Shown: piece by piece, positions 47,206 to 48,206 of the stretch
Position numbering within the stretch: the stretch's first letter is position 1
Layout: every line of letters begins with the position of its first letter
NCBI RefSeq assembly: GCF_044324785.1
Contig: NZ_CP172127.1
Origin: Escherichia coli
GTDB taxonomy: Bacteria > Pseudomonadota > Gammaproteobacteria > Enterobacterales > Enterobacteriaceae
Reading direction: 5' to 3' (one strand)
Length of the DNA: 64,000 nt
Notes under the pieces: model-generated
Database searches by the model: none
What the model was told of the DNA's origin: nothing
The model's input: the letters and a program-made list of their open reading frames with translations, nothing else
Position numbers and translations under genes: made by a program

Positions 47206-47577
47206 AGCTCCTCCTTAATGACAGGGTTGCGAAGCCCTGATTCTCTTCAGGGTGAATATTAAAGATAACACAAACACCGCGTAACGATTTGATAACAACC
47301 CAAATTGATAAAAGAGGAGAATCCTTGTGGCAAAGCAAATGAAAACCCCGCCGCAGCGGGGTCAGGGATCAGTGAGTAATGATCCAGAGGAGTTCGGCCC
47401 AGAAGAGCATCGACAGAGAAAATGCGCCCATCCAGGACCAATATTTCATATTTGTGTTGATCATAGGCTACACCCTTAACGGTTATTACTTTGTGTTGAG
47501 ATAACTCAACCTGTTATTGCTGCGGTGTATTAAAAGCCCTTTAATTCATTAAAAATGGGTAATAAGAATGATGATAA

Positions 47578-47745
47578 TTATTGTTTCGGCTGATCATCTT
47601 CAGCAAACAGTTCTATAAAGGCTTGCTGCTGCGTTGTTAGTTGCCAGTCGTCTGGAATAACGACGGAACATTCCCGTTTCGTTTCTGGTTCATTGTCACT
47701 ATGCTGACATAATGGTGACGACTCCAGTTGCTCCTGACCGACCAT
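47578..47745 (-). CDS. yciX: Small protein YciX
   Basis: 55 aa from MVGQEQLESSPL; start 2 bp downstream of the ymiA stop. Confidence 0.7.
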   Translation of the reverse strand: MVGQEQLESSPLCQHSDNEPETKRECSVVIPDDWQLTTQQQAFIELFAEDDQPKQ

Positions 47746-47747
47746 AG

Positions 47748-47876
47748 TTATCCCCACACTTTCCAAATCAGCAGTGCGACAACCACCCAGAAAAGAGCAG
47801 AACCAAGAAATACCGCCAGCCAGGCTTTGCGTTTTAATTCAGGGTCCCGGCGGGGTTCCTGATTTCCAGAAGGCAT
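47748..47876 (-). CDS. ymiA: Small membrane protein YmiA
   Basis: 42-aa ORF MPSGNQEPRRDPELKRKAWLAVFLGSALFWVVVALLIWKVWG found by manual translation; below the ORF-track size cut-off. Confidence 0.65.
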   Translation of the reverse strand: MPSGNQEPRRDPELKRKAWLAVFLGSALFWVVVALLIWKVWG

Positions 47877-48206
47877 TGCTAACCTCATATAATCGCCATC
47901 ACTTATCAGCAAGACGTTGAACGATTGGTGTAATTAATCATACGATGAGACAAATCCTAAAGAAACTTTAGTCAAAAATCCAGCGAATTTACGAATCGTC
48001 TCCAGTGAATAATTCAATCTTTTGACCTGAAATAGATATTTGAAAACTGGAGTTTGCGAGGCGGGTAATTAGACACTACTTTACAGGTAATTTACCCTAT
48101 AAATATGAGGGATAAAAATATTGTGCACGGTATACAAATAAGCAACAAAAGAGAATATATTCCGGCACCTTCGCTACATAAAAGGTGCCGAAAATAACGC
48201 AAGAAA

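Follow-up and report, generated by a model that had tools for sequence, protein, structure and literature searches.

Of the small proteins whose induction at low Mg2+ depends on PhoQ, MgrB and MgtS have established partners (PhoQ and MgtA, respectively), whereas YmiA, YciX and YmiC have no known partner. The genes for these last three form a published operon, ymiA-yciX-ymiC (PMC11429745). ymiA-yciX shares its PhoQ-dependent, low-Mg2+ induction with mgtS-mgtT, yriA-yriB, MgrB and MgtS, and, as in those systems, very short ORFs lie head to tail on one transcript and the membrane member is toxic if overexpressed (PMC11429745). The pairs are arranged differently: in mgtS-mgtT and in yriA-yriB the two ORFs overlap in different frames, and ymiA and yciX stand 2 nt apart.

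The locus examined here lies in a 64,000-nt stretch of Escherichia coli DNA (the whole of which is called the window). On its minus strand, a 42-codon ORF (MPSGNQ...KVWG; complete product MPSGNQEPRRDPELKRKAWLAVFLGSALFWVVVALLIWKVWG) begins ATG CCT TCT, with the ATG at 47876, and ends TGG GGA TAA, with the stop at 47750–47748. A 55-codon ORF (MVGQEQ...QPKQ, C-terminus DDQPKQ) begins ATG GTC, with the ATG at 47745, and ends AAA CAA TAA, with the stop at 47580–47578. Direct reading of the sequence places exactly 2 nt, CT (47747–47746), between them. An earlier, sequence-only reading of this DNA had described ORFs at 47578–47876 on the minus strand, with a 2-bp TAA-CT-ATG spacing and a second product of 55 aa, and this was exact; the position that it gave for the pair is also right, as cysB (49181–48207) and acnA (47205–44530) flank it upstream and downstream, respectively, both likewise on the minus strand.

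Approximately 1.1 kb around the pair matches E. coli strain N3 at 100% DNA identity, and the same stretch is found in 5421/5426 complete E. coli genomes at identity ≥95%. RefSeq gives the gene order in strain N3 and in K-12 as cysB, ymiA, yciX, ymiC, acnA (K-12 locus tags b4522, b4523 and b4741 for ymiA, yciX and ymiC). Compared with K-12, there is no structural difference: genes, order, neighbours (cysB and acnA) and the 2-nt ymiA/yciX spacing are all alike. The window yciX is identical in DNA to the annotated strain N3 CDS, and its product differs from the common E. coli allele by a few residues (95–98% identity to YciX clusters). The names ymiA and yciX, proposed from the sequence, are therefore those that RefSeq gives to identical DNA, and the YmiA protein family models (below) agree. 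We are confident, although short of certain, that the pair belongs to the already known E. coli operon ymiA-yciX-ymiC between cysB and acnA. Regarding it as a pair captured the tight packing of ymiA and yciX and missed the third gene, ymiC (31 aa). For comparison across species, 80 ymiA loci from Enterobacteriaceae were used, one per species, together with further loci (L083–L087). The CysB C-terminus is encoded approximately 210–1100 nt (typically ~340 nt) upstream of ymiA in 77/80 of the species loci, and cysB is also upstream of ymiA in L083–L087.

The third gene (ymiC in RefSeq; 47369–47464, minus strand) encodes 31 aa, MINTNMKYWSWMGAFSLSMLFWAELLWIITH, and its product matches Pfam PF23694 (87.5 bits, cut-off 27) and NCBIfam NF041484 (66.3 bits, cut-off 42). 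Its pN/pS is 0.40, against 0.9–1.6 in off-frames, GFP-YmiC has been found at the membrane (PMC11429745), and according to an independent preprint ymiC has no promoter of its own and lies on the yciX 3′UTR. The same segment is a match to the full Rfam model STnc180 (RF02079; 47335–47537, minus strand; 202.7 bits, gathering threshold 50, model positions 1–208 of 208), which spans the ymiC mRNA, starting 40 nt past the yciX stop and finishing where the terminator ends, and Salmonella locus L085 has STnc180 at the equivalent position. STnc180 was put forward as a Salmonella Hfq-associated RNA candidate; in contrast to a discrete sRNA, however, the window segment encodes the 31-aa YmiC, and the Northern signals of the STnc180 authors, at 500–2000 nt, were ascribed to probable processed mRNA species (Sittka et al. 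2008, PMC2515195). A terminator scan detected an intrinsic-terminator-like hairpin at 47344–47363 on the minus strand (GACCCCGC-TGCG-GCGGGGTT followed by TTCATTTG), with 8 pairs, 6 of them G-C, and a T-rich tail, 139 nt before the acnA ATG. The operon transcript would run through ymiC and probably stops at this hairpin, ahead of the acnA proximal promoter.

The low-Mg2+ induction of the operon is PhoQ/PhoP-dependent: in reporter assays, the ymiA upstream region drives more transcription when Mg2+ is low, and this response requires PhoQ (PMC11429745). In the window, ~200 nt upstream of ymiA (47889–48085, minus strand) are conserved across genera, with many blocks ≥90% identical in an alignment of approximately 80 species, and probably comprise promoter, operator and 5′ leader. 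A scan with the PhoP box consensus, (T/G)GTTTA-N5-(T/G)GTTTA at the -35 position, returned weak PhoP-like matches, each with 3 mismatches of 12 (TGACTAAAGTTTCTTTA, 47974–47958; TCTTTAGGATTTGTCTC, 47963–47947). These PhoP-like 11-bp repeats (47974–47947) lie upstream of a candidate -10-like TATGAT read from the sequence (47942–47937, minus strand). The matches are weak, and the PhoQ dependence could be indirect. A weak, candidate CpxR-like box was also found by consensus scan (48084–48070, minus strand), and yciX is listed among the Cpx regulon genes in a Salmonella transcriptome paper. A conserved RNA fold within the leader of ymiA was considered and rejected: the single-sequence fold gave z = +0.49, and the consensus reached -3.7 kcal/mol with almost no covariation.

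As annotated, ymiA occupies 47748–47888 on the minus strand (141 nt) and encodes 46 aa, MRLAMPSG...KVWG, followed by TAA. The protein matches Pfam PF22868 (YmiA-like; 125.9 bits, cut-off 27) over residues 1–46 and the NCBIfam equivalog NF000536 (96.8 bits, cut-off 30) over residues 5–46. It has one hydrophobic stretch, LAVFLGSALFWVVVALLIW (residues 24–42, Kyte-Doolittle mean 2.54), in keeping with its initial description as a single-transmembrane protein, and AlphaFold2 models a helix over residues 16–45 (pLDDT 84–93). Residues K19, R20, K21 and W23 are invariant in the species alignment, and dN/dS for ymiA is 0.11, compared with 1.5–2.0 in off-frames (Nei-Gojobori). An N-terminal GFP fusion fluoresces, and GFP-YmiA is found at the membrane, at the cell periphery (PMC11429745). 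YmiA is therefore a small protein of the inner membrane that crosses it once, by a C-terminal transmembrane helix, and whose basic N-terminal tail is placed in the cytoplasm by topology prediction. That the gene is translated, a point for which ribosome profiling or tagging had been suggested as a check, is already documented in the literature by initiation profiling, a tryptic peptide (both discussed below), GFP fusions and targeted mass spectrometry, the last of which reported ‘YmiA (46 aa)’ at ~1000–3000 copies per cell (PMC12529367).

The length of YmiA depends on the choice of start codon. The annotated start (47888) lies 12 nt 5′ of the ATG at 47876, so that the ORF extends upstream of its 42-codon form, and the second in-frame ATG (Met5; 47874–47876, minus strand) is the start of the 42-aa protein, which was the K-12 annotation of 2006; RefSeq and K-12 annotation now give 46 aa. 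Several lines of comparative evidence point to Met5, and would be expected if YmiA were a 42-aa protein started at 47876, the four extra codons of the annotation being 5′ leader. The Met5 ATG is invariant in 80/80 species loci and in the window. At Met1, by contrast, 58 species have ATG and the other 22 have ACG (12), GTG (4), AAG (4) or GCG (2). A GAGG Shine-Dalgarno sequence (47883–47886, minus strand), 6 nt upstream of the Met5 ATG and overlapping the Met1 ATG (as ATGAGG), is present in 80/80 sequences, and predicted pairing with the 16S 3′ end is stronger for Met5 than for Met1 (-6.8 vs -5.0 kcal/mol). Met5 is also where the three-base periodicity of substitution sets in: the entropy of third positions is 1.07 bits downstream of it, as expected of coding sequence, compared with 0.35 over the 12 preceding codons, in which the first and second positions are as variable as the third. 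Finally, the NCBIfam model has 42 positions, aligning to residues 5–46. Experiments in K-12, however, indicate otherwise. Tetracycline-inhibited ribosome profiling (TetRP) showed initiation at MRLAMPSG, 12 nt upstream of Met5, and its authors cited the tryptic peptide LAMPSGNQEPR (PMC4909307), which cannot derive from a Met5 start and therefore requires a start upstream of it; Onc112/retapamulin profiling likewise favours the MRLAMP start (bioRxiv 10.1101/511675). An exclusively 42-aa YmiA is thus unlikely, and the 46-aa protein is the best-supported product in E. coli and the main form in K-12. The 42-codon ORF of the sequence-only reading does exist, but the annotated and experimentally supported YmiA of E. 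coli is four residues longer. As judged from the alignment, the conserved part of YmiA is the 42-aa core. Since the comparative data favour Met5 as the ancestral start, the 46-aa form may be lineage-specific or one of two isoforms; initiation at both Met1 and Met5 is conceivable, and both starts may be in use.

The yciX CDS (47578–47745, minus strand; RefSeq ‘protein YciX’) encodes 55 aa followed by TAA. Could it be open by chance, or conserved as DNA or RNA, for example as acnA regulatory sequence or as the 5′ portion of the transcript that carries ymiC and STnc180? YciX matches no Pfam or NCBIfam model, a word-indexed protein search returned it in Escherichia and Shigella only, and its N-terminal half is poorly conserved (dN/dS 0.53). 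A distal acnA promoter, reportedly mapped ~400 nt ahead of that gene, would moreover lie within yciX. Against this, the annotated frames of both ymiA and yciX are open in 80/80 species, and at the yciX locus the other sense frames contain stops in 76–80/80 species; with both strands considered, the annotated frames are the only ones free of stops in 80/80. Overall dN/dS for yciX is 0.28, falling to 0.17 in the C-terminal core, compared with 1.4–2.4 in off-frames (Nei-Gojobori), although the codon alignments were built from frame-0 translations and somewhat favour that frame. The core has entropies of 0.65/0.46/1.29 by codon position, a protein-type pattern. The stop-codon counts are independent of dN/dS and of substitution weighting, although they come from the same alignments. 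Moreover, all of the species have a start codon for yciX right beside the ymiA stop in spite of differing spacer nucleotides, and yciX persists beside ymiA in a distant locus (L086) that has the order topA-cysB-ymiA-yciX and lacks acnA and STnc180; a second distant locus (L087) has the same order, with acnA. A yciX that is no real gene is thus highly improbable, and ymiA and yciX are shown, for yciX on comparative grounds, to be real protein-coding genes under purifying selection. Only the annotated frames being conserved, no competing frame displaces the two ORFs as originally read.

The apparent restriction of YciX to Escherichia and Shigella likewise did not hold, since the word index is limited in sensitivity: tblastn on the 80 loci and a profile search recovered homologues in many genera. 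By tblastn and ORF tracing, a YciX homologue directly follows ymiA in 79/80 species loci, the exception being that of S. enterica arizonae (L061). A profile of 65 YciX homologues retrieved 72 representative clusters, consisting of ~55-aa proteins except for a few long, repetitive ones of low score; members in Atlantibacter, Mangrovibacter, Izhakiella and Pantoea are each labelled ‘hypothetical’. Because there is no Pfam or NCBIfam model for the family, YciX is called ‘hypothetical’, or is not called, outside Escherichia. We define the family as proteins of ~55 aa whose start lies a few nt after the ymiA stop and which carry a C-terminal PxxWxL[TS]xxQxxFI motif.

Conservation within YciX is concentrated in a C-terminal core (IPDDWQLTTQQQAFIELFAEDD, residues 30–51; 47593–47658, minus strand). 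The full family motif is [IV]PxxWxL[TS]xxQxxFIxxF, followed by an acidic patch, and the window protein carries PxxWxL[TS]xxQxxFI as IPDDWQLTTQQQAFIELF. Among 65 sequences, W34, L36, Q40, F43 and I44 are invariant and P31, A42 and F47 are ≥90% conserved. The N-terminal half varies, and so does the sign of its charge: the window protein has a net charge of -9, as its description as acidic would imply, but the family median is +2 (range -11 to +5), so that ‘acidic’ describes the E. coli protein (Escherichia and Citrobacter) and not the YciX family. AlphaFold2 places a helix at residues 38–46, with pLDDT ~90 over residues 31–50 and low confidence elsewhere, and YciX is accordingly predicted to be disordered apart from its conserved C-terminal helix. 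Searching solved structures with the YciX profile gave chance-level matches alone (E ≥0.7). Two candidate relationships were rejected. The Pfam CSLinker motif was matched below threshold by 15/65 members (best E 0.007, 16 bits vs cut-off 27), and the terminase small subunit family phrog_51 (PHROGs), also below threshold, by 23/65 (best E 4e-4, 13–15 bits); both matches rest on the short ‘LTPxQxxFI’ helix, and thus reflect motif resemblance rather than homology.

The junction between the two genes, GGGGA-TAA-CT-ATG (47743–47755, minus strand), comprises an SD-like G-run, the ymiA stop, the 2-nt spacer and the yciX ATG. The G-run is formed by the final two ymiA codons, TGG GGA, and TGGGGN (codons TGG GGN) precedes the ymiA stop in nearly all 80 species; predicted anti-SD pairing at the yciX start is -5.5 kcal/mol. 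The distance from the ymiA stop to the next start codon is 2 nt in 55 species, 1 in 13, 3 in 9, 4 in 2 and 0 in 1. Locus L086, which is more distant, has no spacer, its stop and start codons sharing 1 nt. Because spacer length varies, so does the relative frame of ymiA and yciX, yet their adjacency is always kept. This also bears on whether the two could be a pseudogene, a single ancestral gene that a frameshift has cut in two. The TetRP tables do give the locus a single gene identifier and the name ‘yciX(ymiA)’, and a few database ORFs of 91–97 aa fuse the YmiA N-terminus to YciX. Two ORFs, each with its own start, are nevertheless present in 80 species, with a spacer of 0–4 nt, and a relative frame that differs between lineages is incompatible with a single recent frameshift. 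The fused ORFs, for their part, have a deletion within the transmembrane segment, after which an out-of-frame ymiA tail is read; rather than the ancestral arrangement, they represent derived variants or errors of assembly. A split gene is the least credible of the alternatives weighed here, with next to no probability.

The anatomy of the junction between these two separate genes fits that of termination-reinitiation pairs, in which start and stop lie within a few nt of each other and the SD is inside the upstream ORF. Ribosomes finishing ymiA would restart 2 nt downstream on yciX, the G-rich last codons of ymiA would act as its Shine-Dalgarno element, and YmiA and YciX would in this way be made together. 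A literature search found no direct evidence, by tag or mass spectrometry, for the YciX protein, nor any for ymiA-yciX coupling.

The published phenotypes of YmiA raise the question of whether the ymiA-yciX pair might be a toxin-antidote-like module, in which a harmful membrane peptide, YmiA, is neutralised by co-translated YciX. Overproduction of YmiA alone causes a lag of 8–10 h and longer cells, in a manner dependent on the ymiA start codon (PMC11429745), and YciX is a tightly coupled downstream partner, disordered and, in E. coli, acidic. However, slow growth on overexpression is common to other membrane-associated small proteins (MgtS, MgrB, PmrR, YoaI and DinQ), and single deletions, that of ymiA included, are without phenotype (PMC11429745). 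The genes occupy a fixed core-genome position and are not mobile, and the acidity of YciX is not conserved. In Salmonella, the YciX motif has been deleted between two GACGATGA repeats in L061 and L083, where ymiA and ymiC are kept, indicating that YmiA does not strictly need YciX; in Salmonella subspecies enterica the motif is kept, behind a TAAGTG junction. Nor did modelling give any sign of contact: an AlphaFold2 model of a YmiA-(G4S)5-YciX fusion, with a paired alignment, showed no gain in confidence (pTM 0.26; a weak negative, as the output included no contact or PAE data), and pLDDT of the YciX helix was ~74 in the fusion compared with ~90 alone. Direct contact between YmiA and YciX is therefore unsupported, and a toxin-antidote-like role is very unlikely.

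The idea of contact draws its appeal from two features, the basic, predicted-cytoplasmic tail of YmiA and the conserved acidic patch that follows the YciX helix.

By analogy with the PhoQ/PhoP-dependent small membrane proteins MgrB and MgtS, the small proteins of the operon would most likely modulate a larger envelope or signalling protein, although such an analogy does not amount to evidence. YciX would be cytoplasmic and largely disordered, its sole constrained part being the 20-residue C-terminal helix motif, for which the likeliest role would be docking onto a partner protein. More specifically, and tentatively, since we consider it possible rather than probable, ymiA and yciX may form a conserved two-part module, extending from Enterobacteriaceae to Erwiniaceae (Pantoea and Izhakiella), in which YmiA is a membrane anchor and YciX a soluble, disordered adaptor, start-stop coupled for joint synthesis, the W-x-L-x3-Q-x2-F-I helix docking on YmiA or on a shared target in the low-Mg2+ response.

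The pair as read from the sequence is correct but ordinary, and of little importance as a discovery, the genes, operon, regulation and YmiA localisation being already published, with annotation in essentially every E. coli genome. What is added here is the nuance of the ymiA start codon, the overlap of ymiC with STnc180 and, from sequence comparison, the standing of YciX as a conserved family start-stop coupled to ymiA. For annotators, the ymiA start is ambiguous, in that K-12 experiments lead to 46 aa and conservation to a 42-aa core, and YciX is an Enterobacterales-wide family with a sharply conserved 20-residue motif. For small-protein research, the conserved 0–4 nt stop-start junction offers a clean natural system in which to study reinitiation from one very short ORF to the next.

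A strong terminator-like hairpin of 13 pairs lies directly 3′ of the cysB stop codon (48160..48193, minus strand), and its position indicates that cysB is probably transcribed apart from the small-protein operon ymiA-yciX-ymiC. Between this hairpin and ymiA, the stretch holding the probable ymiA promoter and leader (47930..48090, minus strand) showed strong conservation. Candidate elements here, all on the minus strand, comprised a CpxR-like sequence (GTAAAGTAGTGTCTA, 48084..48070), weak PhoP-like 11-bp repeats (TGACTA/TCTTTA/TGTCTC, 47974..47947) and a −10-like TATGAT (47942..47937). Other genera additionally have an inverted repeat (ACCGATTGTTTGGT) in this region, of which E. coli retains a degraded form. 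The 36 nt immediately 5′ of the conserved ymiA Met5 ATG (47877..47912, minus strand) were nearly invariant between genera, third codon positions included: third-position entropy was 0.35 bits in this segment, compared with 1.07 bits downstream. The constraint looks non-coding in type; no conserved RNA structure that would account for it was found in the leader.

The YciX motif, the conserved C-terminal core of the protein, has been lost in two Salmonella loci, one from S. enterica subsp. arizonae (L061, 2640..2720) and one from S. enterica (L083, 1663..1720), by deletion between two GACGATGA repeats, despite which ymiA and ymiC are intact in both. YciX is kept in subsp. diarizonae (L037) and subsp. 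enterica (L085), where the yciX GTG start abuts the ymiA stop (TAAGTG).

Four database proteins from E. coli-like metagenome contigs (P0003, P0008, P0010, representing 37 member sequences, and P0039) were ORFs of 91–97 aa in which the YmiA N-terminus is joined to YciX. Most arose by a frame-shifting deletion within the transmembrane segment, after which the out-of-frame ymiA tail is read (GGCRTADLESVGIT); in P0008 the two are joined through an in-frame deletion instead. These fusions may reflect either genuine variation or misassembly. The protein database holds several truncated forms of YciX that run out into unrelated sequence, with a tail ...GNDSNLLIVFYVQ common to P0015 and P0058 and a different one in P0020; such tails possibly derive from insertion junctions. 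One E. coli genome match (NZ_CP154596.1) carries an IS1A element inside the cysB-acnA interval.

A YciX-like motif (IPEHWQLTPEQRRFIDDL) was also present outside the cysB context, in a 65-aa ORF (protein P0218; locus L088, 2001..2198) approximately 900 nt from a phage-integrase gene. This motif shows a sub-threshold resemblance to the helix at the N-terminus of small terminase subunits (phrog_51).

The interval from yciX to acnA yielded no ymiC homologue in Pseudescherichia, the Citrobacter freundii group and certain other loci (L027, L040, L046, L047, L049, L052–L054, L056, L068, L070, L076, L077, L079 and L081), so this third gene is retained less broadly than ymiA and yciX. The distance to acnA in L027 exceeds the usual one by about 900 nt. 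In the E. coli window, a full-length match to the Rfam family STnc180 (202.7 bits; 47335..47537, minus strand) encloses both ymiC (31 aa; 47464..47369) and, at 47363..47344, a hairpin terminator, each on the same strand. STnc180, a so-called sRNA family, is therefore the 3′ coding portion of the ymiA-yciX-ymiC mRNA.
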